From the IMG/VR virus record IMGVR_UViG_3300014208_000023, positions 224,001 through 288,000 of that record: a stretch of 64,000 bases of DNA; one strand, 5' to 3'. Below the pieces are notes generated by a model. That model was not told the origin of the DNA. It saw nothing but the letters and a program-made list of their open reading frames with translations, and did not search any database. Shown here piece by piece: positions 3,626-17,816 of this stretch (positions are counted from its first letter, which is position 1; each line of letters starts with the position of its first letter). The position numbers and the translations under genes were made by a program. This DNA comes from a virus (Duplodnaviria > Caudoviricetes).

Positions 3626-5500
3626 TTATGGAGCTGGAGGTGGAGCCGCTGGCGGAGTCCCGGCCGGAGGTGGCGCTCCGCCTTCTGGCGTAGGCGCTCC
3701 TGGTGGTGGTCCGCCGGAAGGAGGCGCCCCAAGGCTTCCAAGATCTGGAATCGCTCCCAAAGGCCCACCGCCTCCTCCTGGCGCTCCCATTCCTCCACCC
3801 ATGCCGCCATCTGCTGGCGCTCCACCTGGACCACCGGCCCCAGCTTCGTATGGGCTATCTGCAGCTACGGCAGAGTCAGTTATCTCTGGAATATCATCAT
3901 CTTCACCAAGGGCACGAAGTTCATTAAGTGACATTTTGGCAAGATTTTCTTTTTCTTTCTTGCGTATAGCCTCGTTAATATCTTCTTTTCGTATTTTGCG
4001 AATCTCTTCTTCGCCCTCTAGCCCCAATGAATCATATAGAGTTTCTCTGGAAACACGCTTATCTTCTCCAGTTGATAACTGCAGAAGAATATTGATGTAG
4101 TCCATCGTATCGAACATCGTAAGACGGTTCCACTCAACTTCTGGAACAATTAGCTTCTTTTCACCGTCTTTGTATTCGTAGAAATCATTTAGCCTTGAGA
4201 TTGGTGCAAAGATCTTATTCTTTAACCAAGCAGACATCATATTACGGAATTGCATGTAGCGCTGACGAAGAACGTCTAGAGAAATGCCTCCGTTAGCATA
4301 ACTGATATCTCCTCCGCCAGTCATTACTACTTCTGGAATCATAAGTCCCATAAAAATTTCTTTTAATAGCTGAGTGATATCGCCAGAAGTATCTATGATT
4401 GCAGAGTTAGCTCCGATGCGCTCTACCGTAACCGCTTCGTGAGTGAAGATTTTGAAATTCTTATCGGCAAGAGATTGGGCCCAGGCGTTTCTCCAAACAT
4501 CAAGGTCTTCTGGAGTTGGCTTGTAATCAGCGCTTCCAACTTTCACTAAAGTAATTGGATTGATTAAGTCTTGGGCCTGTGTGAATTTGCATTCACGAAT
4601 CTGATCGAAAAGCATAAGCTGACGGAAACAACTGACTGGCAGCCCGGTTCCGCGAGTTTCATATGCACTTAATTTTCTAGCTAAATGTGAGATATAGAAA
4701 TTATCTAGAGGTATATTCTCGCCGCGTTTGATGTGTTCTATAATAGTTGGATTTATTTGTTTGCGCTGCTGAATATCAGAAGGCTTATTGGAGAACACCA
4801 GCCGCCGTAACTCGTCGTCCGGCTTTAACATTATGATTGGATCTGAATGAATAGATGTTTTCTTTACTATGATATAGTCTGGGTTCTGAAGAACAATACG
4901 TCTCCATTTAGCATTATTTTCATCAAGATCGCATTGTGGGAAAGCTTCTCCCAATAGCCAATATTCCTGGGCTACTTCAGTGCAAACATTAGCTAACCCA
5001 ATTTCTTCATTCATTTGATTGAAAAAGTTTTCAATTTTTGGATGAGCACATTTTATATTAAGTTTGCTGATGGGATATGTGCTATGAAGATTTATAGCAT
5101 TTTGAACGAATGATTGAAGGGCTAGGAATGATCTGCTCCAAGCATTAATGGTTGCCCTATCTCGTGGAAGATTAAGATTGCTATTTAGCCAGAGCGGAGA
5201 ATATATATCTGGCATCTGTCTCAATGCACTTGATGCCCCTCTCCAGTCGCCAGAAGCAGCGGTAGATGATGTTACCTGAGCGTTTTTAACCTGACCAACT
5301 GCTGTAGATAAAAACGAATTAGATGTCGTAGAAGTTTGATTGCTAGAACCATCACGCCATAGTCCGCGCTCATATTCCTTCGTTAAGGTTCCTTTTCTGT
5401 AATCAGAAACTTGATGATAAACCCTAGAGTTCATTTTAGAAGGCTGCTCTTTTGGAGGAGTCGGAACATTTATAACTGGTGGATTTTTACGATTACTCAT
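3626..5500 (-). CDS. Phage portal protein with Gly/Pro-rich C-terminal tail
   Basis: Directly downstream of terminase; portal-like core (EYWLLGEAF, IVLQNPDYI, AYETRGTGLPVSCFRQL, EIFMGLMIP); size typical. Confidence 0.8.
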   Translation of the reverse strand: MSNRKNPPVINVPTPPKEQPSKMNSRVYHQVSDYRKGTLTKEYERGLWRDGSSNQTSTTSNSFLSTAVGQVKNAQVTSSTAASGDWRGASSALRQMPDIYSPLWLNSNLNLPRDRATINAWSRSFLALQSFVQNAINLHSTYPISKLNIKCAHPKIENFFNQMNEEIGLANVCTEVAQEYWLLGEAFPQCDLDENNAKWRRIVLQNPDYIIVKKTSIHSDPIIMLKPDDELRRLVFSNKPSDIQQRKQINPTIIEHIKRGENIPLDNFYISHLARKLSAYETRGTGLPVSCFRQLMLFDQIRECKFTQAQDLINPITLVKVGSADYKPTPEDLDVWRNAWAQSLADKNFKIFTHEAVTVERIGANSAIIDTSGDITQLLKEIFMGLMIPEVVMTGGGDISYANGGISLDVLRQRYMQFRNMMSAWLKNKIFAPISRLNDFYEYKDGEKKLIVPEVEWNRLTMFDTMDYINILLQLSTGEDKRVSRETLYDSLGLEGEEEIRKIRKEDINEAIRKKEKENLAKMSLNELRALGEDDDIPEITDSAVAADSPYEAGAGGPGGAPADGGMGGGMGAPGGGGGPLGAIPDLGSLGAPPSGGPPPGAPTPEGGAPPPAGTPPAAPPPAP

Positions 5501-5523
5501 CTATATCTTATATATCAAAGGGT

Positions 5524-7365
5524 TTATAGTCCTGGCAAATATCCAACAACTACTGGTGGGCGACGTTTTGGAGAATTATTCATCATTGAGGGATGTTTAA
5601 TACTGAATCCATTACTAACATAGAACTTATAAGCTAAATAAGCATTTAGTAATGCCATAAATCCATCGTTAGGTCCTGACTTAACATATTTGGGAGTAAC
5701 TTCTCCTGAACGACTTATACTGGGCTTAATTTCCATATTAGTGCAATGTTGTATTAACCAAGCAATTTTTTCATAATCTCCCAATGGAAATCTGATATTA
5801 CCTTTGCGCATCTGCTCATACATTTCTGCTATCCAAAAGTCTTTCTCAAAAGTAATTACTTTTGGAAAAATAGAATCATTGAACTTAATATGATCATTAA
5901 CTCTATGAGATGATGTTGAAGATAGAAATTTATCTCCCCATTCTGTTTGTAATACTTCAGATAAGTCTCCAGTAAATCCAAGGTCTATTACTCCAAGATT
6001 AACTGAATACTTCCGCATGAAGTAATTTATCGTTTCTTTTTTGGAGGCAAAATCGTTTCTTTTGAATTTTTCAGCTCGCTCTATAGTAATTCTTTGCGAC
6101 CCATTAATAGTTATTATTACTGCTGTGCTATAACTCTGTCCTTGTTCCGCTATTTTTGGACGATCGATTAGTTGCTCGATATCGTTCTTTGCGCCAATAT
6201 CTATTCCTAGGAAAACCATTTCTCCGTCATCGGGAGTTATGGTTGCCCGGAACTTCCGTTCTGGATCTCCGCAAATATCCCTGATTTCATCTGGGGAAAT
6301 TATTCCAGTTTCACCAGACCAAAAATTACCTAAAACTTCATTCTGATAAGTTCTTTCGGTATTGGTTGCGCTATGGCCCGGTTTTTCGTCCATAATCCGC
6401 TCTTTGGTATATTCTGGATTGTAAAGCTGGTTTAGATGGAAACCGATATATTTACATTCACCAAGGTCTTTAGACGCAATCCATTTTCCGCGTTCGACGG
6501 CCTCACTCTTATCTTGCTCAAATCCACAATGTTTACAGCGAACCGTAAATCCATAAAGCCAAATCTCTTCCCACTCATTTGAGTTTTGAGTAAATAATGG
6601 AAAATGTTTTTTGCACTTCTCACACCCAAGGTGATAGAATTGCTGTGATGATTCGCTCCACATATCAGAGAACATGGACCCTCTTTGTAGAGGGGTTCCG
6701 AAATATACTTGAACGCCTTTACCAACTGAACCATAATTTGCTTTGGTTAGAGTTTTAGTTGAGTTACCCAGTCCCAAGGCGGGCATCTTCTGAACCTCAT
6801 CAGCAAATAGAATATCAGTTGATTTACCCATCATTCTATTTCCATCAAGACCAATGCTTTCAATAAACATATGGTTACCGCCTTGAAATTGTTTAAAATT
6901 CAAGCTGTCGTTGCTATCAGAAGACCTATCAAGCATATTTTGCATAAATGATTTTGCTTTTTGCCCCTTGATTGGCTTATCGCTAATTACAATTGAATTA
7001 TTAATCATTGAATTGAGTTTTACCTTGGAATAGGCATTTGCTAGCTCTAATTGTGGAAAGCAGTGAATAATTCTTATTGGAGGGTTATGGCCATTACCGA
7101 ATACTCCGCTTCCCATAAAATACATTTCAAGGGCCGCACATAGAATGGTTAGTCCTATCTGCCGTCCCTTACAAATAACTATTGGAAGGCCGCCCTTTTC
7201 GAGCGCCTTCATTCCAATTGTTCTTGCGATATCGGCTAACGGTTTATACCCGTTGCCATTAATGCGATATGGCTTACCCTCTAATGTAAGGTGTTTTTGG
7301 CACCACTCAACGGGGTCCATGGCAAGTAGACCATCTTTAATTCTGTCAAATATTATATCCGTCAT
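5524..7365 (-). CDS. terL: Terminase large subunit, lambda GpA-like
   Basis: KGRQIGLT (Walker A-like), ILFADEVQ (Walker B), FGTP, CxxC...CxxC zinc module with ERGKWIA and GFHLNQLY, C-terminal nuclease FLGIDIG; start moved to ATG 7365 (MTDIIF) because the longer start overlaps the divergent gene. Confidence 0.9.
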   Translation of the reverse strand: MTDIIFDRIKDGLLAMDPVEWCQKHLTLEGKPYRINGNGYKPLADIARTIGMKALEKGGLPIVICKGRQIGLTILCAALEMYFMGSGVFGNGHNPPIRIIHCFPQLELANAYSKVKLNSMINNSIVISDKPIKGQKAKSFMQNMLDRSSDSNDSLNFKQFQGGNHMFIESIGLDGNRMMGKSTDILFADEVQKMPALGLGNSTKTLTKANYGSVGKGVQVYFGTPLQRGSMFSDMWSESSQQFYHLGCEKCKKHFPLFTQNSNEWEEIWLYGFTVRCKHCGFEQDKSEAVERGKWIASKDLGECKYIGFHLNQLYNPEYTKERIMDEKPGHSATNTERTYQNEVLGNFWSGETGIISPDEIRDICGDPERKFRATITPDDGEMVFLGIDIGAKNDIEQLIDRPKIAEQGQSYSTAVIITINGSQRITIERAEKFKRNDFASKKETINYFMRKYSVNLGVIDLGFTGDLSEVLQTEWGDKFLSSTSSHRVNDHIKFNDSIFPKVITFEKDFWIAEMYEQMRKGNIRFPLGDYEKIAWLIQHCTNMEIKPSISRSGEVTPKYVKSGPNDGFMALLNAYLAYKFYVSNGFSIKHPSMMNNSPKRRPPVVVGYLPGL

Positions 7366-7411
7366 ACACGTTAATACCAAAAAAAACCTATAATTATGAT
7401 ATAGAGCATAT

Positions 7412-8059
7412 ATGTCAGTGTGCCGTAAGTGCAATATATTGCTAACAAATAATAATTGGACGCCGGGTAGACGGATAGGTAAGAATTATATTTGCCAATC
7501 TTGCGCAGTTATAGTTCGTAAAATATCTTATGATGGACGCAAAGAAATTGAGCAGTCCGTCCAAAAGGCCAGGGCAAAATTTGAAAAACAAGAAACCATA
7601 AAATTCTATGGCTCTTCCTGCGCTAGTTGTGGATTAAACGAAATTAAAAAGCTAACTATCGACCATATTGATAACACTGGCGGGAAACATCGCAAAACAG
7701 GTATTGGTGACATATATGGATGGCTTTATCGTAATAAGTTTCCAACTGATAATTTTCAACTGCTATGTTATAATTGTAATTGCACCAAAACCATAGCTTT
7801 TAATGATAAACACCATCTTCGCAACAAAGAAAAAGTGATGGCCGCTTATGGCGGCCAATGTAATGATTGTGGCGTATCAGAATTAAAATATCTCACGATA
7901 GACCATTCCAACAACGATGGCGCAGAACAACGTCGGAGCCTATCTTGCGGCAAAGGCTCCATATTTTACAGATGGCTTATAGCAAACAATTTTCCGAAAA
8001 ACTTGGGGCTACAAGTATTATGCTATAACTGTAATTGTAGTAAGCTCACTTCTGATTAG
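7412..8059 (+). CDS. HNH endonuclease with two tandem HNH domains and N-terminal Cys4 finger
   Basis: Two copies of YG..C..CG......LTIDH..N.G...R......Y.WL....FP.....LCYNCNC.K. Confidence 0.8.
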   Translation: MSVCRKCNILLTNNNWTPGRRIGKNYICQSCAVIVRKISYDGRKEIEQSVQKARAKFEKQETIKFYGSSCASCGLNEIKKLTIDHIDNTGGKHRKTGIGDIYGWLYRNKFPTDNFQLLCYNCNCTKTIAFNDKHHLRNKEKVMAAYGGQCNDCGVSELKYLTIDHSNNDGAEQRRSLSCGKGSIFYRWLIANNFPKNLGLQVLCYNCNCSKLTSD

Positions 8060-8619
8060 AAGGCAGTCGGAGACATTACATTCAATGGGTTATTATCTTT
8101 AACCGTATTGTTGTCTATGTCAAGGTCTACTTTTCCATCGGCCTTATCATCCTCTTCGGGATGCATTTGGCTTTTAAGTTTGTTAATATATTCCTCGACA
8201 TCTGATGGAATATTTTCTCCATTAGGTATCGCGTTTTTATATTTTGGTTCTTGAAGAATAAGATCTCCAATTGCACTAACCGCAGATCCTGGAAACACAT
8301 CTAATTTATCCTTAATGAAATCTTTCATATCAGGAAATTTTTTAAACATTTCAGGCTCGTCGGATGCTTGCTTTTGAAGAATTTCAAATAAGCCAGTTCG
8401 TTTTTGCATATCAAGAACGGCCTCTTCTACGCTGGAATATTTTGACTTAGCATTACCAAGTATTTGATTGATCTCATCAAATATCGTAGCATCTTCTTTG
8501 CGAGATTTTACCGAATATTTTTCTACGGCATCAAAATAATCTTTTGCCCAAGAAGGATCTTCGTTTGAATATGTAGAGAAGCTTTTGTCTCTAGAAATTT
8601 TGCCACCAAATCTGCTCAT
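8056..8619 (-). CDS. Hypothetical protein (head module)
   Basis: 187-aa ORF tightly packed in operon; contains LQKQAS. Confidence 0.75.
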   Translation of the reverse strand: MSRFGGKISRDKSFSTYSNEDPSWAKDYFDAVEKYSVKSRKEDATIFDEINQILGNAKSKYSSVEEAVLDMQKRTGLFEILQKQASDEPEMFKKFPDMKDFIKDKLDVFPGSAVSAIGDLILQEPKYKNAIPNGENIPSDVEEYINKLKSQMHPEEDDKADGKVDLDIDNNTVKDNNPLNVMSPTAF

Positions 8620-8623
8620 TTTA

Positions 8624-9439
8624 TTATGCCCTATAGTTGGAGGCTAGATCGCCACGGCCATTGTCAATTTCAACGTCTTCATCTGGAAGCATAAGTCGAT
8701 CGTCGCGAAGTGGGAATCCCATATCTTCTAGGTGCTGAATAAGCTCGGCCTGCTCTCTGGTATTTAGGCTATATTTTTTAACCTGCTCACGATAAAGAGA
8801 TGGTAAATCGTGCCCAGCAGAAACGGTTCCATTTATACACACACGCGCGCATCTAGAAATAATTAGTGGAACTGTTACGATAATTCCGCCAGTATATGGG
8901 GTTCGCGCTTCCTTAACCATTTTTCCATCAGATTCTCCAGCAGCAGCTTTGTTGCTGTAGTCAGTTTCATGACGTTGCTCAAAAATGCTTTTTAAGGTCT
9001 TGATTGATTCAAAAATCCACTTACGAACAGTTTCTATGGCCTTAACATCTATGTCACCATCATAATCCGTAGAAATTGCTCTTGATATTTCTTTGTTGAA
9101 ACGCTCTAGATAACTAATTCCTCTTTCTATTGCTGTGGTCTCATTACCACTCATGTCTGGTATTGAATTAAGTCTATCCTGACACCATTCCATAAATTTT
9201 TCTAGACCCATTGATTGCCAGTCCCAACGATCTTTCGGTCCCTTTTCTTTGGTAGCTTTTGGGGAGTGTGATTCCTCAGAAACCTCAATAACTCCGGCAG
9301 TTGGAAGAGTTGGGAAATGAAACGCATGATTATCGTTGCTAGGCTGATGCAGCTCTACAACGTCATCCATTTTAGGCATTTCGTCAAATATGATAACTTC
9401 ATTTTCTGGGTTTTCTAGGGCGCTCTTAAAAAGTGGCAT
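8624..9439 (-). CDS. Hypothetical protein (head module)
   Basis: 271-aa ORF; GGAG SD upstream; LFKSA and MVKEA motifs. Confidence 0.75.
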   Translation of the reverse strand: MPLFKSALENPENEVIIFDEMPKMDDVVELHQPSNDNHAFHFPTLPTAGVIEVSEESHSPKATKEKGPKDRWDWQSMGLEKFMEWCQDRLNSIPDMSGNETTAIERGISYLERFNKEISRAISTDYDGDIDVKAIETVRKWIFESIKTLKSIFEQRHETDYSNKAAAGESDGKMVKEARTPYTGGIIVTVPLIISRCARVCINGTVSAGHDLPSLYREQVKKYSLNTREQAELIQHLEDMGFPLRDDRLMLPDEDVEIDNGRGDLASNYRA

Positions 9440-9456
9440 GGATCTCCATCATTATA

Positions 9457-11136
9457 TTATTTTATTGCAAGTTTGGTAAATAGGTTTGCCATTTCTTCTA
9501 TGTTAATTGACTCTAAAAGGCCGTTAGATTGATAGATATTGTTATACGGATTATTAACAACATTTTCTGAATCTTCTTCGTTTGGCTTTCCAACATGCTC
9601 GGCTAATGGGAAGGCAAATAATCCCTCATCGCCGTGCATTGATGAATACATTGACCCGCTAAAATCAGATGGGTTTAGCAATGTTTCGCCAGTATCTCCG
9701 CCATCTTCTCCCTCATCCTTATCTTGCTCTTCTACCGCCTTAATTGCAGGATCATTTTCTTTTCGATCCATAGTAGATTCTAGGTCATCATTTAAAACTA
9801 TTGGAAAATTATCAGTATCATACTCATCAATACCGGTATAATAGGCCTGCTTTTCAATGTCACCTAAATATCTGCGATCTATTTTCCATATATCTATATC
9901 GGAAGGATCTATTTTGGCTCCCTGTATTTTTTTCCAATTATATCCTCCTCCGGTCTCATAAACGCCAGGAGAAATATCTACACCGAAAGCCTCAGCGTCA
10001 TTATAAACAACTATAAATGCGTGATCGTCGCCATCATGACCACCATCGGTAAGATCTACTTCCGGTATTGCAGATGAAATGACAGATCCCATGGCCTGCG
10101 CTACCTGGTCACAAACGCCACCAGAGCCAAGATCCTCGCTGATACCATCTTCGTCTTGAAGCCATCCATCAACTATATGCTGTGCGGCTACTGCAAATTG
10201 TGATCTTAATTCATTTAATTTAGAATATAGATTAGTTTTTGAGGCCAATTTCATATCCTTAATTTTTTTAATGACTTTTTTACGTTTCTTTTTGTTCTTT
10301 CTTCTATAATCGGAAATGCTCTTATAGTCTGGCATATTGGCGTAAAATCCTTCGCCATAATCCATATTGCGTTTAAGCTGTGCCGTTTTCGATCCTTTTG
10401 GATAGTGAGCATAAAGCGATTCTGGTATTGGTAATGATTTCCACAAATCCAAAGACGTTATTGATTCGGCAGTTTTCTCTACTCCATATGCGGCAGCTTT
10501 ATTTAGATTTTTAGTTATATATCCAGGATCTATATGTGCCAATAAATCTTTATTGTTTTTTATAAAATCTATAATTTTTGGATCTATAGCGAACCCTAAT
10601 TTTGCGGACAAGTATATTACTCTAATGATCCTATTGACATTATATTTAAGAGTAATTTCGGGATCTACACAAGTTCTAATTATTTTAGATTTAATATCTT
10701 TGGCGCCCATCTTTGTGGGATCTGAAATTTTATTAAGTCCAAAATCCATCAATAATGAATTGCAAGTAAAATCTCTAGAATATGCCTCACGCATTAAATT
10801 AGTAGGATTTTTAACGCCTTTTTTTAGAAGCTCACCATCAATATTTGGAAGTATAAAGTTAGATGAAAAATCTAGTTTTAATCCCCCTAAAAATATAGAG
10901 GTATGGCCATCATCCATTAATTTAGATTTAACGGAAAATGTTCTGCCTAAATCAAGCTCCACTTCTTTAGCCAAATTTTTAATACTTGACTCGCCATTAG
11001 TTATGTCGATATCCTCTAATTTTGTTAGAGTTCCCATAAACTTTTCGCGAACTGCTCCGCCACAAATCATTGGCGTAGCAATATTGTTCTTTTTTGCTAT
11101 TCCTTCAATTTTGGCTAGTAATTCGCGTAGTTTCAA
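9457..11136 (-). CDS. Class II tRNA nucleotidyltransferase/poly(A) polymerase-like protein with long C-terminal extension (Cys-His-Asp domain, acidic tail)
   Basis: GGAVRE...EDID, SRDFTCNSL, DP..G..DI....IRT, RIIRVIYLSAKLGF in aa 1-245; templating motif EDxxR replaced by YNVNR. Confidence 0.8.
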   Translation of the reverse strand: MKLRELLAKIEGIAKKNNIATPMICGGAVREKFMGTLTKLEDIDITNGESSIKNLAKEVELDLGRTFSVKSKLMDDGHTSIFLGGLKLDFSSNFILPNIDGELLKKGVKNPTNLMREAYSRDFTCNSLLMDFGLNKISDPTKMGAKDIKSKIIRTCVDPEITLKYNVNRIIRVIYLSAKLGFAIDPKIIDFIKNNKDLLAHIDPGYITKNLNKAAAYGVEKTAESITSLDLWKSLPIPESLYAHYPKGSKTAQLKRNMDYGEGFYANMPDYKSISDYRRKNKKKRKKVIKKIKDMKLASKTNLYSKLNELRSQFAVAAQHIVDGWLQDEDGISEDLGSGGVCDQVAQAMGSVISSAIPEVDLTDGGHDGDDHAFIVVYNDAEAFGVDISPGVYETGGGYNWKKIQGAKIDPSDIDIWKIDRRYLGDIEKQAYYTGIDEYDTDNFPIVLNDDLESTMDRKENDPAIKAVEEQDKDEGEDGGDTGETLLNPSDFSGSMYSSMHGDEGLFAFPLAEHVGKPNEEDSENVVNNPYNNIYQSNGLLESINIEEMANLFTKLAIK

Positions 11137-11137
11137 T

Positions 11138-12787
11138 CTACGCTCCTGGTGGAACTAGGGCTTTTGGTTTTGGAGCCGGAACTGCTGGCCTTTTAGGTTC
11201 TAGTGGAGCCTCTGCCAATTCTGCGCCAGGGCTTTCAACTTCAATTTCTGGCTTATCGGTATCTTCAAGCTGAAGTTTTTTGTTATTAACCTCTTTGCGC
11301 ATTTCTTTGCGATCTTCCTCTTTCTTCTCTTCGCTTTCAAGATGACGCTGTAGAAGTTGAGCTTCTGGATCGGTCTCTTCTTGGTTTCTTGTAAGATCGA
11401 TTTTTCCTTTGCCAAGTCCGCTTTGTAGAGTTGAAATAATATCATCCATACGAGTTGCGGAATAATTAAGGCAGTCCAAATTTTTCTGCTGAACTTCAGA
11501 GAAGTTTGAGAAGTAAGGAGTTAATCCTAATCTTGAAAGCATAAGATCAGCAAGAGCTAATTGACGATTGATCTCTTTTCTTTTGAAAATAAGATTGATA
11601 TCCTGAAGTTTTGCTAGCAAATCTTCCATTGTTAATTTATCAAATGCCGAATTTACTAGCGCATCAAAATCACTAGCCGGGGCCACTTCCTTAAGGCCTT
11701 TAGAGCTTGTAGGTTTTGCCGTTGGATTTTCTCCATCTGGGCGTTTTTCTTTCTGAATTTTATTTGGAAGATTTTCTTTTGTAAGTCTAGCGTCTTGTCC
11801 GGTTACCACTAGCTCATCGTCTGAAAAATCAACAAAAGCCTCAACCTCTACTTCATCCTCATCCATAACAACTTCATCTTCTGGGCTATCGTCGTTATTT
11901 AGCTCTTCTTTATTTATTTTGGCGCCATCAGTTATGCCGGCGCCTTTAGTATTATCTATGAATCCATCAATTCCTGTTAATGGGGCTTCTTCCGGCTCTG
12001 CGGCACCAGGCGGAACTGGATTCAAGTTTGGCATTGGTGCTCCCAAATTTCCAAGTCCTTGAGGTATGCTTCCGCCTACTGGTGTTTGGCCCATTGCTAG
12101 GTCTCCTGTATTTCCAGGAGTTTGCTGGGCGAGTTTAATCATAATATCGGCGCCTACCATACAATTTTTACGTTGAAGTATTCCGGCGTGCTTTATGAGC
12201 AAATCAACGCACGTTCTCGCAGATAAGGCCAGTCTGCCTTGAGTGCTTATCATCATCTTTAGGTCATGAACTGACTTAAGTAATGATTTGTAATCTTTAC
12301 CAGAAAACAAATATCCACGCTGTGTGTTTAAGTGTTTTTCTATAGAATTAAGTCTTCCTAATAAAACTTTACGAAATGCTTCATTAGCAGCATCTTCATC
12401 TGCCTTTTGTAGTCCTGGCTGAAATCCATCAGCAACATAGTTTGCCTCTTGAGCAATATCATTAATGCTTTTTATTGGCGATGGAACTGGATGTTTTGCT
12501 CCAGGAGGATTGGGCATATAATAGTTGCCCTCTTCGCTGTAATAAGAATTTTGTGCAGTTTTGTATTTATATACTTCTCCACTTTCGTAATATTTCATCC
12601 AATTACTAAAATTGTATTTTTCTGCGGCAGTCCAGTCGCCAACAATAGCTTCTGTGGCGGCCGTTTTATTAAGCCCTAAACGGACCTTGACATAAATATC
12701 TCGAAGAGCAGATGTCCAACGCTCAAGGTTATAGACTGTAGACATTGGCATATACTCACTATAGTTTGGGTAAGCTTCTTTTATCAC
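11138..12787 (-). CDS. Hypothetical protein (head module), 549 aa
   Basis: Long ORF, GTG start; five KxA motifs; acidic/Pro-rich linkers. Confidence 0.75.
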   Translation of the reverse strand: MIKEAYPNYSEYMPMSTVYNLERWTSALRDIYVKVRLGLNKTAATEAIVGDWTAAEKYNFSNWMKYYESGEVYKYKTAQNSYYSEEGNYYMPNPPGAKHPVPSPIKSINDIAQEANYVADGFQPGLQKADEDAANEAFRKVLLGRLNSIEKHLNTQRGYLFSGKDYKSLLKSVHDLKMMISTQGRLALSARTCVDLLIKHAGILQRKNCMVGADIMIKLAQQTPGNTGDLAMGQTPVGGSIPQGLGNLGAPMPNLNPVPPGAAEPEEAPLTGIDGFIDNTKGAGITDGAKINKEELNNDDSPEDEVVMDEDEVEVEAFVDFSDDELVVTGQDARLTKENLPNKIQKEKRPDGENPTAKPTSSKGLKEVAPASDFDALVNSAFDKLTMEDLLAKLQDINLIFKRKEINRQLALADLMLSRLGLTPYFSNFSEVQQKNLDCLNYSATRMDDIISTLQSGLGKGKIDLTRNQEETDPEAQLLQRHLESEEKKEEDRKEMRKEVNNKKLQLEDTDKPEIEVESPGAELAEAPLEPKRPAVPAPKPKALVPPGA

Positions 12788-12807
12788 AAGTGAATGCGAA
12801 ATAATAG

Positions 12808-13548
12808 CTAAATATCGAGCTTGTCTTTGATTTTGCCTTCAATCTCATAGGCCGCGTCAAGCCTCTTATCCATCGGAATAACTGACTCTTCGCTAGCTTT
12901 TAGCTCTGAAAGTCTTTTCGTAAATAATTCAGTAAATAACAAAGACGTTTCGTAGTCTAACTGCGCTAATATTTCTCGTATAACACCATATACCATATTT
13001 ATGTGACTATCGACTAACTGAATGCTGATATTATTCTGAATAGTTACTTGCTCTGGGTTGCCGTTAGTAACTAAATCGAATTTTTCCAAGGTATTTAATA
13101 GAAGCGTGAACCACTCAATCAGGGTCCTATCCATCTTAATGTTTCTAGGATCTCTTTGGATGTGATCAAAAACCTGCTCGGCTCTGTGCTCTATGGATAT
13201 CACTAGCCTTTTAATAACTGTTTTTATATCTAATTCTTTATCGGCAATATCTAAAAGTTTCTTTTTATATGCCTCATTGCCCTTGATTTCTTCCATAGCA
13301 TCTTCAGGCTCTACCGCTAAATTGAACTGGGTTTTAAGAAGGTCTTCTCTTATTGTAGAATAAAAATCTAAATATTCATCCTTAAATATAGTTAAATTCT
13401 TCTTTGTTATAAGAAGCTGCTTCTGCCCATTGTATTTGGCCTTAAGCCAGTCCGCAATGTCTTCCTCAGATATTTCAGATATTAATTTTGTTATAATCTC
13501 ATCCTTATCTGGATGAGAAGTAATTTGATCCGCTACTTGCTTGGCCAT
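12808..13548 (-). CDS. Hypothetical helical protein
   Basis: 246-aa ORF coupled to upstream gene by TAATG overlap. Confidence 0.75.
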   Translation of the reverse strand: MAKQVADQITSHPDKDEIITKLISEISEEDIADWLKAKYNGQKQLLITKKNLTIFKDEYLDFYSTIREDLLKTQFNLAVEPEDAMEEIKGNEAYKKKLLDIADKELDIKTVIKRLVISIEHRAEQVFDHIQRDPRNIKMDRTLIEWFTLLLNTLEKFDLVTNGNPEQVTIQNNISIQLVDSHINMVYGVIREILAQLDYETSLLFTELFTKRLSELKASEESVIPMDKRLDAAYEIEGKIKDKLDI

Positions 13549-14480
13549 TATTCTCCAGGGTTATATCCCATACGTGTCGCGCGGCTATCAAACGTTGTAA
13601 ATGTATTGTGATGATCGGAGGCATTTTGCTCTTGAACAGTGCTGCCTGGAACTTTATTTCCTTTTTGAGTAGTAAAGCCTTCATCCCAATTATATGATTT
13701 GCCGTCTAGAGCGCAACGAACCGTATGCTCACCAACTCTATATGTTGAAACTCCGGCATGATCTGGACAGTATCGTGTTGAAAGAGGTTCTTCCATTACA
13801 CGATATTCTTTATATACCGGACTTTTCTCGATATCTTTAATCGCCTGAGCTATATGATTGCCTTCTAGCTGTGATTCTCTGGTATCGTTATATTTTTTTT
13901 TTAATTGCTCAATACGATCGTCATAATCGGCCGTAGAGAATAAATAAGAATTTTTTGGAGACGCTAAAGTTAGTAGAAGGTCATCCAAAACGGCGGCTTG
14001 TTTTTGTAGAAGTTCGTCATCTGATTCGGCAAAAGCCTCGGCTACTGCGGCAATTTCATCTAGTTTTTGTGGAGTAAGTGCTTCTGGAGCAGGCTCAAGT
14101 GCTGCAATATCCTCGGCGGCTTCACGTAAAGCATCTGCGGCCTTCATAAATGAGAGGGCGACCTTATCCAATACGTCATTATCTTCTGCGGCAATTAAGG
14201 TTTCATTTTCTGAGCTTTCGAGGGCTTCAGCCATTTTAAGTAATTGATTTGATGATATTTTACCTTCAACAGGCATTTTGTTATGCTTAAGGCCTTTGTT
14301 GTCTTTATTAATTGCCCACTGACGAATTAGCACGCTCATTAATTCAAGAGATTTATCTAATGACGCAAGTAGTTCTTCGCATACTGGATCAGTAGCCAAT
14401 GAGCGGTCTTCTAATAGTTGTTCGGCCTTATAGCTTAATCCACGACAAGCTTCATTTATTTCTTCTAAAATTCTAGTCAT
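13548..14480 (-). CDS. Hypothetical protein with C-terminal Cys/His motif
   Basis: 310-aa ORF; RYCPDH...RCALD. Confidence 0.75.
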   Translation of the reverse strand: MTRILEEINEACRGLSYKAEQLLEDRSLATDPVCEELLASLDKSLELMSVLIRQWAINKDNKGLKHNKMPVEGKISSNQLLKMAEALESSENETLIAAEDNDVLDKVALSFMKAADALREAAEDIAALEPAPEALTPQKLDEIAAVAEAFAESDDELLQKQAAVLDDLLLTLASPKNSYLFSTADYDDRIEQLKKKYNDTRESQLEGNHIAQAIKDIEKSPVYKEYRVMEEPLSTRYCPDHAGVSTYRVGEHTVRCALDGKSYNWDEGFTTQKGNKVPGSTVQEQNASDHHNTFTTFDSRATRMGYNPGE

Positions 14481-14487
14481 TTTTTCC

Positions 14488-15948
14488 TTAGTAAAGAATC
14501 TTTGAGTTCATAAAGTAAGCACCTTCATAGCTATCTTCCATTCCTTTACGAGACATCGGGCGGCAATCTCCATGCTTATCCTGAAATACTTTATTGAGGG
14601 GAAGATTTAGGTGACCACAAACTGGTTGTGTACTATTTGCAGTTTTAACGATTCTAGAGCACTTTGCGGTAGAAGCCTCCTTCTTAACGCTTGATAGGCC
14701 ACTAGTGTATTCGTCAAGAGCAATCTTATAGGCTTTGGCATCATCCATATTGGCTAGAACATTAAGGGCATCTTCTGCTTTTGCGTAATTTCCTTCTTCG
14801 GTAGCTTCTCGAACCGTCTCAACTAAATCAGACGCTTTAAGTGTGAATAACGGAGAAACAATTGCTGCAACCTTATTATCAGTAAGTTCGGCCGATTGAA
14901 GGCTTTGTATTCCGTCAGCAGTAAATGACTCAATGCTTCCTTTGCAAAGAATAACGGCCGGCTCTTGTAGTCTTCCGGACTCTATTTTAACTGGAACCTT
15001 GAATGCAACACCATCACAGCTAACTCCGTAAGTAATGCTATCTTTAGTGGCTTCTAATATATTTACCTGATGGCTACGCTTACCAAATCCGTTAAGCTTC
15101 TGGGATATAATGCGTCTTCCCTGCTCTGGCAATTCACCATGCTGAAAAGCAGCGATTCCTTTTGCAGAAGATAGATTGCTGGCAAAAGACTCAACTTCTT
15201 TAGCATCTACGGTTGGCTCGACTAGCTCAGCAAAGGCCTCTCCTACCGATTCGTTGCCATGACTTCCTGCTTTGGTGAAGAAATTAGAAACATAATTCGT
15301 AATGCTTTTCTTGCTAATATAGTGCTGACCATCTTTTCCAGTGAAGAATGATGGGGCAGTGGCGGTTTTGCGGAACATTTCTACTGGAACGTAGAATGAG
15401 GCATTTCCTTGTGGTGTGCGATATGTGGCTGCAACAACTACGACGTTTTCGTCACCAGATACGGCTCTAACTACTGGCTCTAGATTTGGAAATGAACACT
15501 CCATAACGACCGCTTTTTCGGCAGCCTTGGCAATGTCATCTGGCAATCCATTGGCAGTTGGATTAAACGCAGCATTTAAGCTAGCTAAAAGCGTCTTGTC
15601 AGTATCCTGGTAGATATCAAATTCCTGGAAAACTTCTTCTGTGCGTGAAGCGGCGGGCTCAGCAGCAGCCTCAAGTCCTAGCTCCTCGGCAAAGATTTCT
15701 TTGAACTTCGTGTTATGGCTATATAATTTATTATATAGATCCTTAACTTCAGCTCTCGAAATAAATAGCCTATTACCAGCATTCATTCTATCAACAACCA
15801 AAGACATCTGATTGATAGTTTGATCCTCTGGGTTGGCCGCTCCAGATTTGTGCAGCTTTTGGGCGAAGAATGCCAAAGCGATTTTTTCATGTCCGTCAAG
15901 AGCGGATTGAAGATTTGAAATGGCCTTTTTTAGCTCAGAAGGTAGCAT
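14488..15948 (-). CDS. Hypothetical protein (head module), 486 aa
   Basis: Long ORF coupled by TAATG overlap at 15948. Confidence 0.75.
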   Translation of the reverse strand: MLPSELKKAISNLQSALDGHEKIALAFFAQKLHKSGAANPEDQTINQMSLVVDRMNAGNRLFISRAEVKDLYNKLYSHNTKFKEIFAEELGLEAAAEPAASRTEEVFQEFDIYQDTDKTLLASLNAAFNPTANGLPDDIAKAAEKAVVMECSFPNLEPVVRAVSGDENVVVVAATYRTPQGNASFYVPVEMFRKTATAPSFFTGKDGQHYISKKSITNYVSNFFTKAGSHGNESVGEAFAELVEPTVDAKEVESFASNLSSAKGIAAFQHGELPEQGRRIISQKLNGFGKRSHQVNILEATKDSITYGVSCDGVAFKVPVKIESGRLQEPAVILCKGSIESFTADGIQSLQSAELTDNKVAAIVSPLFTLKASDLVETVREATEEGNYAKAEDALNVLANMDDAKAYKIALDEYTSGLSSVKKEASTAKCSRIVKTANSTQPVCGHLNLPLNKVFQDKHGDCRPMSRKGMEDSYEGAYFMNSKILY

Positions 15949-16391
15949 TAGAATAGCTCCGGATAAAGTTTTTTAACTTCTGTTTGACGCTCTGGAGATA
16001 GGGCGGAAAACAAAGCCTCAACGAAATGTTGATCGGTTGAAAGTTTAGTTGGCAGAAAATTTACGATGGTATCAGCATCTTCATGAGCGAATTTGGTAAA
16101 TGCCGCTCCTTTATAGAAGAGATGAACATCTCCCTCTTTAGATATCGCTTCCCATTGGTTTTTGGCGCTTGCTTGTTTAATAGGTGATGTTTCTTCGTCA
16201 GTATTGTATCTTGCTACAATATAATCACCATCATCGGCGCTTTGGATCTCCCAAAGTTCATCGATTGGCGCTCCTTGTAGTCTAACAACATCAAAGGCTA
16301 CTCGGATAATTCTATCCTTAACTTCTGACAATTTGTAAGTTTTTTTATCTAGTTTTTCAAGATCAGAATAGTTTAGGTCAAACAGTCCCAT
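15948..16391 (-). CDS. Hypothetical protein
   Basis: 147-aa ORF with GGAG SD upstream. Confidence 0.75.
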   Translation of the reverse strand: MGLFDLNYSDLEKLDKKTYKLSEVKDRIIRVAFDVVRLQGAPIDELWEIQSADDGDYIVARYNTDEETSPIKQASAKNQWEAISKEGDVHLFYKGAAFTKFAHEDADTIVNFLPTKLSTDQHFVEALFSALSPERQTEVKKLYPELF

Positions 16392-16470
16392 TAAATATCT
16401 CCAAATGTATGCTTTATTATCCGTTATTGTTCTTTGAGCGCAAGTTTTCTGTGCGACTTGAGATTATATT

Positions 16471-16929
16471 TCAAATATATGTGTTGTTTCGTAAGTCAGA
16501 GATTTTATCCATAATCTCTTTTATGGCTGGGTCTTTATCTACTACCCTAGCTAATTTTTTACAAATGCCACCATAGGAAGCTTTACCATTATCTTTTGAA
16601 TAATCGACATTTCCATTAATGCTTTTCGTAATGCTGCTTTGATTAACACCCAATTTCCTTGCCGCCTCTTGTTGAGTGGCCCCCTCTTTTAATAACTTAA
16701 CTATTTCCAATTGTCTTGGGGTGAGGTGTTCATTTATGATTTTCCAAAAACGCTCTTTGAGTTGATCTTCTAAAATTAGAATGTCCTCATTATAATCAAA
16801 TGGATTCAATTTTTTATATACACTATCATCATTTGAGAACGTCTCCATCATTTCATGGCTAAAGGCTTTCTCCACAAGAAGATGTTGATAAAGCTGACTT
16901 CTCGTTGGTCGTTTTCTCTCTGGGGCCAT
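16471..16929 (-). CDS. Sigma-70 region 4/LuxR-like helix-turn-helix protein
   Basis: LTPRQLEIVKLLKEGATQQEAARKLGVNQSSITKSI matches the sigma4 HTH pattern; no region 2 in this protein. Confidence 0.7.
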   Translation of the reverse strand: MAPERKRPTRSQLYQHLLVEKAFSHEMMETFSNDDSVYKKLNPFDYNEDILILEDQLKERFWKIINEHLTPRQLEIVKLLKEGATQQEAARKLGVNQSSITKSINGNVDYSKDNGKASYGGICKKLARVVDKDPAIKEIMDKISDLRNNTYI

Positions 16930-17069
16930 TTGTTCCTATTATTATGCTACAAAATTGTAAGCCTATCTTACGCATAATAATATATCAATGGTTTTAAATT
17001 ATGAGTATAATCAACACATTAGATTGCAATCATTTTTTTGAGCATTAGATATTCTATAATATCATATAC

Positions 17070-17816
17070 TTACGACAGGCTCCTTATAAACTCTTTTGCG
17101 CGATCTCCTTCAGATTCTAAAAATTGATCAAGATCTTTATATCCATCTGGCAAACAGGCTTTTGTTATATTTGCCCTCTTACCATAGTTAGAAACAATTC
17201 TATCCATCCCCGCAATACCAGCCTTATCATTGTCAAGCAACAGAATGATATTGTCCGTATAACGCATTAGCATTGCAAATTGATTAAAGGCCATATTTCC
17301 TGAGCCTAAACAAACGCAATTTTCAATTCCATTGCTCATGGCTCGTATGCAGTCAAACTGGCCCTCTACAACATATACGCAATTTTCTTTTACTATAGCT
17401 GGCTTTGCTCTATATAGTCCAAATAAATGATTCTTTTTCTTAAATGATGTATTTTTATACTTTGATATATTCGCAGTCTTAAACTCATTGTCTCCAAGAA
17501 TAGTTCTTCCAACTAATGCTATAGTTTTTCCATAAGCATTTTTATATGGCATAACCATATTATGATTTTCTAATACAGAAGCAAGAGCCATCTCTCCTTC
17601 TATAGATCTATAATAGAATAGTCCAGACTTAACTAAATTTTCTTCGCCAAGAATATTAACTAACAAATGTAAATTATCTGTGCTTGGAAAGTATCCCATT
17701 TCAAATTCTTTTTGAATGTTTTTGTCAAGCCTATTATCGAGATATTCCCTAACCGGTTCGGCATAAGGAAAATCAGTTAAAAGATTTTGACATATTTTAG
17801 TAACCTGGTCTAACAT
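17070..17816 (-). CDS. dnaG: DnaG primase catalytic core (Toprim), lacking zinc-binding and helicase-binding domains
   Basis: EYLDNR...EFEMGYFP, IALVGR, SKYKNT, LFGLY, VVEGQFD, LLLDNDKAG. Confidence 0.85.
   Translation of the reverse strand: MLDQVTKICQNLLTDFPYAEPVREYLDNRLDKNIQKEFEMGYFPSTDNLHLLVNILGEENLVKSGLFYYRSIEGEMALASVLENHNMVMPYKNAYGKTIALVGRTILGDNEFKTANISKYKNTSFKKKNHLFGLYRAKPAIVKENCVYVVEGQFDCIRAMSNGIENCVCLGSGNMAFNQFAMLMRYTDNIILLLDNDKAGIAGMDRIVSNYGKRANITKACLPDGYKDLDQFLESEGDRAKEFIRSLS

Follow-up and report, generated by a model that had tools for sequence, protein, structure and literature searches.

Class II nucleotidyltransferases are the textbook case of a protein that serves as its own template, and selection experiments have found the Asp and the Arg of their EDxxR motif (motif D) to be irreplaceable in CCA-adding enzymes. 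When three positions of the motif were randomised in the human CCA-adding enzyme, with Asn available, only [E/D/G]DxxR survived selection for A-addition and CCA-addition (PMC11784652), and the first template position varies freely in CC-adding enzymes (PMC11784652). In the poly(A) polymerase of E. coli, alanine scans identified the motif D Arg as the main determinant of specificity: R215A randomises nucleotide choice, while E211A and D212A barely alter it (PMC2532741). A further motif, RRD, has been described as a ribose-recognition element (PMC2910056). Here we describe a gene of this superfamily in a virus of the Caudoviricetes (Duplodnaviria), IMG/VR record IMGVR_UViG_3300014208_000023, whose sequence of 428,320 bp has direct terminal repeats. 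The gene lies within a stretch of 64,000 nucleotides (positions 224,001 to 288,000 of the record), hereafter the window. Its product appears best explained as an active, minimal RNA 3'-nucleotidyltransferase with a relaxed template that relies on the Arg only, co-produced with the head proteins and, probably, loaded into the capsid, processed and injected; we give this reading a probability of roughly 45%.

A preliminary description of the gene covered window positions 10390-11136, which correspond to residues 1-249, that is, to the nucleotidyltransferase core. Its account of the core was accurate, and it missed both the multidomain architecture of the protein and the position of the gene among those for head formation and DNA packaging. 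Architecture and fixed position change the most likely biology of the gene.

A head and neck without a tRNA-binding half

The Pfam model PF01743 (PolyA_pol head) matches residues 24-154 of the protein (E 3.4e-10; 40.8 bits, with a cut-off of 23), and two PHROG families annotated as "tRNA nucleotidyltransferase" match it as well. An AlphaFold model of residues 1-310, built with 33 relatives, had a mean predicted local distance difference test (pLDDT) score of 87. A Foldseek search with this model returned 46 solved chains of CCA-adding, A-adding and poly(A) enzymes (E 3e-12 to 7e-8). The matches cover about 237 columns, corresponding to head and neck, with template modelling (TM) scores of 0.46-0.58 by query, and they end near residue 240. 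Profile matches comprised S. pombe cca2 and cca1, bacterial CCA-adding and A-adding enzymes, and E. coli poly(A) polymerase. The head-domain model, the head and neck fold and the motif A carboxylates, arranged as hG(G/S)...DxD, place the protein in the class II superfamily, as originally proposed.

The remaining domains of canonical enzymes were not detected. Searches with Pfam gave no match of the protein to the body and tail domains PF12627 and PF13735, nor to the PolyA_pol_RNAbd and arginine-rich C-terminal domains, both of which are present in the canonical enzymes recovered by our word-indexed search. That search returned a tight family at E 1e-274 to 1e-34, then a gap, and then canonical CCA-adding and PcnB enzymes at E of at least 3e-11. 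An exhaustive profile search yielded at least 136 family representatives at E <1e-30 after clustering at 50% identity, most of them stand-alone proteins of 240-260 aa. Since these short relatives are complete proteins, the tRNA-binding half is not part of the enzyme. A relative is encoded at 236 IMG/VR loci. We also searched 50,697 phage records by tblastn, using the window protein and one member with Asp at the template position. No member of the family was found in these records, only distant matches of at most 31% identity, mostly in uncultured phages or in ordinary "tRNA nucleotidyltransferase" genes; thus, the family has no characterised relative among them.

Catalytic motifs are conserved

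HMMER alignments to solved CCA-adding enzymes place Y-N-V-N-R opposite E-D-A-L-R in motif D and S-R-D-F-T opposite R-R-D-F-T in motif B (Table 1). The stretch HIDPGY..K aligns with V-E-R..K of motif E, so that the Glu-Arg pair is replaced and the Lys retained. All three substitutions had been noted in the preliminary description, and the YNVNR codons lie exactly where it had put them. The catalytic carboxylates, within an EDID at residues 41-44, are intact, again as described there. By its alignment with the Glu of the strand I-E-V-T-T-F-R in structure 6ibp, D89 is a candidate third metal ligand.

Among 154 family representatives, each of the residues G26, G27, R30, D42, D44, D89, E117, R121, D122, N126, D139, D147, R169 and R172 is kept in 148-153, and S120 in 149; these sequences are related, and this and the other residue, clade and motif counts given here thus overstate independence. 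Catalytic residues are retained even in lineages where identity falls to about 40%, and SRD is a mark of the entire family. The canonical relatives recovered by the same search (n=52) carry RRD in 49 cases and [ED]DxxR in 47.

Such near-invariance of catalytic and structural residues indicates that the nucleotidyltransferase is under selection as a catalyst, rather than having degenerated by chance. It bears directly on the idea that the protein is catalytically dead and keeps its fold as a structural or scaffold component. Its place in the head module and the loss of three canonical motif residues would suit a scaffold, but the motif A carboxylates, D89, GG..R, R121-D122 and R169 are each found in at least 150 of the 154 representatives. 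With catalytic residues invariant, we rejected a pseudo-enzyme and regard a scaffold role as very improbable.

The protein thus lacks the features by which CCA-adding and A-adding enzymes are recognised, namely an EDxxR or DDxxR template, RRD, and body and tail domains that bind tRNA. It likewise lacks those of bacterial PcnB (the EDxxR template, PolyA_pol_RNAbd and the arginine-rich C-terminal domain). The proposal that it is not a standard CCA-adding enzyme therefore stands as far as sequence goes, the deviations being conserved in relatives, and a standard CCA-adding activity seems unlikely.

Table 1. Features of the nucleotidyltransferase gene and the surrounding block; positions refer to the window.
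Feature	Residues	Window positions	Strand	Observation
Whole open reading frame	1-559	9457..11136	(-)	559 aa + stop; TTG start; translationally coupled to upstream gene
Class II nucleotidyltransferase core, head + neck only	1-252	10381..11136	(-)	PF01743, AlphaFold, Foldseek, stand-alone relatives
Motif A: G26-G27-x-x-R30-E31 + catalytic D42-x-D44	26-44	11005..11061	(-)	G, G, R, D, D in 150-152/154 representatives
D89, candidate third metal carboxylate, strand K-L-D-F-S-S-N	89	10870..10872	(-)	150/154 representatives
Motif B: S120-R121-D122 in place of RRD	120-122	10771..10779	(-)	S in 149/154 family representatives
Motif D: Y165-N166-V167-N168-R169 replacing E-D-x-x-R	165-169	10630..10644	(-)	R169 in 150/154
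Motif E region	200-214	10495..10539	(-)	No canonical Glu-Arg; Y206 and K213 conserved instead
Linker + strongly basic helix	253-298	10243..10380	(-)	Bounded by K250-T-A252 and K296-L-A298
Cys/His/Asp domain, 130 aa, conserved	299-431	9844..10242	(-)	C342, H372, D387; bounded by K429-Q-A431
Acidic low-complexity tail	432-559	9460..9843	(-)	Conserved end F-x-K-L-A-I-K
Conserved block of ~eleven genes		3626-17816	(-)	Primase to portal

The template position drifts

We mapped the template motif onto a FastTree phylogeny rooted with canonical enzymes. Over the whole family, position 166 is N in 64 representatives, D in 63, S in 12 and Q in 5. Basal clades read D-D-P-[K/R]-R. A derived clade comprises 69 representatives (support 96), most of which read x-N-x-N-R; in this clade position 166 is N in 56, S in 5, Q in 2 and H in 2, the remainder being D, M or E. 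The nearest homologue of the window protein, 75% identical, reads Y-D-L-N-R and thus has Asp at 166. Positions 166 and 168 covary, D166 going with K/R168 and N166 with N168, in keeping with the branching of the tree. Throughout the family the first template position is unconstrained, and the Arg is invariant.

The preliminary description had asked whether YNxNR is conserved among phage homologues, and had proposed that the motif was rewritten and that the enzyme may add other tails to tRNA or mRNA, for example to repair tRNAs damaged by host defences or to mark host RNAs; these would be conceivable roles. The alignment shows no fixed signature: the Asn is found mostly in one clade, and the position before it is free. 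A respecified template, which would add other nucleotides such as U or G, or, by way of SRD, deoxynucleotides, to tRNA or mRNA, does find some encouragement in the Asn kept by most of the 69-member clade and in its covariation with position 168. The ribose-reading RRD (PMC2910056) is altered family-wide, and engineering through motif D has changed the specificity of poly(A) polymerase to GTP (cited in PMC2532741). However, one would expect fixation of a residue that sets a new specificity, and position 166 varies, being S, Q, H, M, E or D elsewhere in the same clade and differing between proteins that are 75% identical. A single event, or a few, may account for the covariation, which tracks the tree, and the hydrogen bonds donated by the unchanged Arg suit C and A. 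We therefore consider respecification improbable. Drift at 166 next to an invariant Arg fits a relaxed Asp better: the template position looks relaxed rather than newly specified, and motif D does not tell which nucleotide is chosen.

The gene belongs to a head and packaging block

In the window the gene is part of a conserved block (Table 1) that comprises, in order of transcription, a DnaG-like primase, a helix-turn-helix protein resembling sigma region 4, five unknown genes, the nucleotidyltransferase, two unknown genes, the large terminase and the portal. The unknown genes of the block have no Pfam or PHROG match, the six neighbours of the nucleotidyltransferase among them. We examined synteny at the best 80 of the 236 IMG/VR loci, many of them on contigs that span 150-480 kb, and scored the distance to the terminase in the 61 whose downstream flank extended for at least 6 kb. 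The block of about eleven genes keeps its order at all 80. In all 61 loci the large terminase lies 2-6 kb downstream of the nucleotidyltransferase gene, on the same strand. The order p486-p310-p246-p549-nucleotidyltransferase-p271-p187-terminase-portal is kept, flanking unknown genes included. Assembly contigs of relatives show the same gene order, distant members with Asp at the template position among them.

This position, always two to four genes upstream of the large terminase, could suggest that the protein acts on DNA or on the packaging machinery, for instance by adding nucleotides to genome ends. The genome indeed has direct terminal repeats, and the altered ribose-reading motif might admit dNTPs. 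We know of no class II enzyme that naturally uses DNA primers, and the domains fused to the core in relatives are cell-wall hydrolases, an RNA-repair HAD and conflict-type domains, not packaging proteins. We give this explanation hardly any weight.

In related huge phages the large terminase carries an intein (Intein_splicing; 11239-14616 in contigs L003 and L004, 9020-11365 in L007), with a LAGLIDADG domain in L003 and L004; the terminase of the window (636 aa) is intein-free. In a distant relative (L005), a patatin-like phospholipase is encoded one gene removed upstream of the nucleotidyltransferase, and directly downstream a protein of 709 aa that weakly matches SLT and GDSL-lipase models (flanking genes at 3893-4702 and 6759-8888). 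Patatin-like, SLT and GDSL-lipase type enzymes are typical of ejected proteins that breach the cell envelope.

Other RNA-related genes lie elsewhere. Most of the phage tRNA genes are found near 370-426 kb of the genome, about 180 kb from the nucleotidyltransferase. Near this cluster, and unlinked to the nucleotidyltransferase gene, is a full-length RtcB RNA ligase (genome 425,323-426,450; E 2.6e-130); the phage thus has a separate RNA-repair gene. The Pfam RNA ligase model PF09414 has no match in the genome. ARAGORN also reported two tRNA-like genes (371,499-371,569 and 371,895-371,967) with an irregular two-base "anticodon" (tc). We considered the nucleotidyltransferase as the partner of a virion RNA polymerase and found no support, as the Pfam models of multisubunit RNA polymerase, PF00562 and PF00623, have no match in the genome, models that divergent phage polymerases would escape.

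Extensions, fusions and K-x-A motifs

The reading frame opens with a TTG 1 nt past the stop of the upstream gene and 7 nt downstream of a GGAG, and homologues share the N-terminal start MKLRELL. After the core follows a basic segment, with 17 K/R within residues 253-300; in the AlphaFold model pLDDT falls below 50 at residues 252-268, and a helix spans 274-309. Relatives of 307-316 aa stop just past this helix. The acidic tail has 30 D/E and 7 K/R in residues 431-559.

Between the two lies a further domain; Pfam and PHROGs have no match anywhere in residues 300-559, tail included. In an alignment of 25 sequences C342 and H372 are invariant and D387 nearly so. The AlphaFold model of the domain has a pLDDT of 90; C342 starts its helix 43-57, and H372 and D387 lie at or in the strands that follow. 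Foldseek found no match for it in the PDB at E <=0.001, and weak fold matches were all in the noise range (LapG, Z 5.2; arylamine N-acetyltransferase, 4.8; vasohibin, 4.7; protein-glutaminase, 4.2). VIA-align and searches of the ESM Atlas and the AlphaFold DB gave weak transglutaminase-like matches only, plus a stand-alone homologue of 134 aa in the AlphaFold DB (TM 0.85, 36% identity). The modelled fold leans weakly towards transglutaminase-like or papain-like cysteine enzymes. The domain occurs once in this genome.

The same domain is found at either end of other proteins, beside ART-PolyVal, SprT-like, 2'-5' RNA ligase/2H, NUDIX and GNAT domains. The nucleotidyltransferase core, in turn, is fused in other relatives to an M15 peptidase with a phage tail lysozyme, to an RNA-repair HAD, or to PcfJ. 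Unrelated, effector-type domains that recur elsewhere, in a gene placed with the portal and terminase genes of the virion, match the pattern of the polyvalent proteins, for which transfer along with the DNA, as capsid-delivered effectors, has been predicted (PMC5512222).

The tripeptide K-x-A occurs six times in the protein. Four of the sites (250-252, 296-298, 429-431 and 555-557) are kept in most of the nearest full-length homologues, the last being absent from one of them (P0004), and the first three coincide with domain junctions. Of 74 extended members, 51 have a K-x-A at the junction between core and extension, whereas the frequency in control windows is 7%; among 79 short members 2 have it. 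The longer pattern [LIVMF]-x-K-x-A-[QSAEY] is about 4-fold denser in genome positions 200,000-240,000, which hold the head module and the nucleotidyltransferase (up to about 16,000 in the window), than elsewhere: 27 of its 76 occurrences fall in these 11% of residues. This distribution fits a putative cleavage code, with Ala at P1, of a head protease.

A virion-delivered enzyme or a tRNA maturation enzyme

In the scenario that we prefer, this class II nucleotidyltransferase, of which only head and neck are present, would be catalytically competent and template-independent. Its pocket keeps the templating R169, lacks the first Arg of the ribose-reading RRD and appears to have lost selection on the partner Asp, and the short basic helix takes the place of the body and tail that measure tRNA. 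Such an enzyme may extend RNA 3' ends by a single nucleotide or a few. Its likeliest substrates would be ATP and/or CTP, recognised by the Arg, with looser discrimination than in a CCA-adding enzyme and no built-in restriction to tRNA or to the CCA sequence. As its gene is central to the conserved late block that leads into the large terminase and portal genes, it would be expressed late, loaded into the capsid and probably cut at K-x-A by the head protease; it would then be delivered with the DNA and act on RNA as the next infection begins. Packaging, cleavage and delivery are suggested by the position in the late block, the polyvalent-type fusion to the Cys/His/Asp domain and the K-x-A motifs at the junctions.

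The principal alternative is an ordinary cytoplasmic enzyme that serves the tRNAs of the phage by adding CCA or repairing their 3' ends, in which case the late-operon location would have no functional significance. We consider it unlikely. Several observations speak for it, those on the tRNA genes and on an HAD fusion also against the preferred scenario. The phage has 16 tRNA genes, of which about 12 lack an encoded CCA and only about 4 have it, and the nucleotidyltransferase is the only PF01743 gene in the genome; ordinary tRNA maturation would be useful to such a phage. The fusion of one relative to an RNA-repair HAD domain suggests repair instead of tailing. The Arg is invariant, the nearest homologue has the Asp, and an Asn could still serve as hydrogen-bond acceptor for the amino group of C or A. 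CCA-adding enzymes also have a backup for nucleotide choice if the template is damaged (PMC2532741). Three further points weigh against the preferred scenario only: what a fixed gene order demonstrates is that the gene is co-expressed with head genes, and not that the protein is in the capsid; the majority of the family consists of short proteins that stand alone and have no obvious targeting extension; and the sequence counts do not represent independent events.

Against an ordinary CCA-adding enzyme, the protein has no body and tail domains to hold a tRNA, and in the randomised human EDxxR motif no replacement of Asp or Arg survived (PMC11784652). SRD stands for RRD throughout the family. 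Moreover, RtcB and the tRNA genes are about 180 kb away, and the nucleotidyltransferase gene never leaves the terminase block. Since the usual templating Asp and the tRNA-binding half are absent and the DNA-packaging genes are always adjacent, we favour a virion-delivered RNA-tailing enzyme as more likely than an ordinary tRNA maturation enzyme.

A bolder version of the preferred scenario, which we regard as doubtful, is that huge phages of a large clade carry in their capsids a minimal class II RNA nucleotidyltransferase, cut at K-x-A from a polyprotein by the head protease and injected with the genome, whose relaxed, Arg-only template serves to tail or repair RNA 3' ends. If true, the enzyme would parallel the poly(A) polymerase that poxviruses carry in their virions and be the first RNA-tailing enzyme known to be packaged by a bacteriophage, and RNA 3'-end chemistry would join the functions that phages bring into the cell at infection. 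The terminase-adjacent position in huge phages points to a core RNA-modifying activity, possibly delivered by the virion, that is absent from cultured phage models. The family also offers a natural test of the template requirement, as the Asp drifts, the first Arg of RRD is always absent and there is no tRNA-binding half.

Comparison with known systems

The head and neck fold is shared with the class II CCA-adding enzymes of Planococcus halocryophilus (6ibp/6qy6), Geobacillus stearothermophilus (1miv) and Thermotoga maritima (3h37). Also common to both are GG..R(D/E) and DxD in motif A, R-D-F-T-x-N in motif B, D..G..D in motif C, and the templating Arg and the Arg following it in motif D. Unlike these enzymes, the phage protein has no body and tail, reads SRD for RRD, and lacks both the E and D of EDxxR and the Glu-Arg of motif E. 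A basic helix and unrelated domains follow its core, and its gene is part of the head module. Split enzymes give the best profile matches (E 1e-19 to 1e-12), namely cca1/cca2 of S. pombe (9ns2/9ns4) and the A-adding enzyme of Aquifex aeolicus (1vfg/4wby); the freedom of the first template position seen in CC-adding enzymes (PMC11784652) is common to the phage family. In contrast to it, the split CC-adding and A-adding enzymes keep the Asp, RRD and full body and tail domains.

Bacterial PcnB has a basic C-terminal region that binds RNA and is not restricted to tRNA, and the phage protein would resemble it in both respects. It shares the catalytic core (3aqk/3aql), and its specificity depends mainly on the motif D Arg (PMC2532741). 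The phage protein differs from it in having no PolyA_pol_RNAbd or arginine-rich domain and in not keeping EDxxR or RRD, and the profile match to it is at E 5e-9 only. The tRNA nucleotidyltransferases of cultured phages (PHROG 2244 and 24229; Aeromonas phage 65, Rhodobacter phage RcXuper) have the same head domain at no more than about 31% identity.

Finally, the polyvalent proteins described by Iyer, Burroughs, Anand, de Souza and Aravind in 2017 (PMC5512222) are likewise multidomain and encoded beside portal and terminase, and the C-terminal domain of the phage protein recurs next to ART-PolyVal, SprT-like, GNAT, NUDIX and 2H domains. The nucleotidyltransferases among them are minimal Pol-beta domains predicted to modify proteins, whereas the one described here is of the class II RNA type. 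Delivery of polyvalent proteins with the DNA is itself a prediction of that work.

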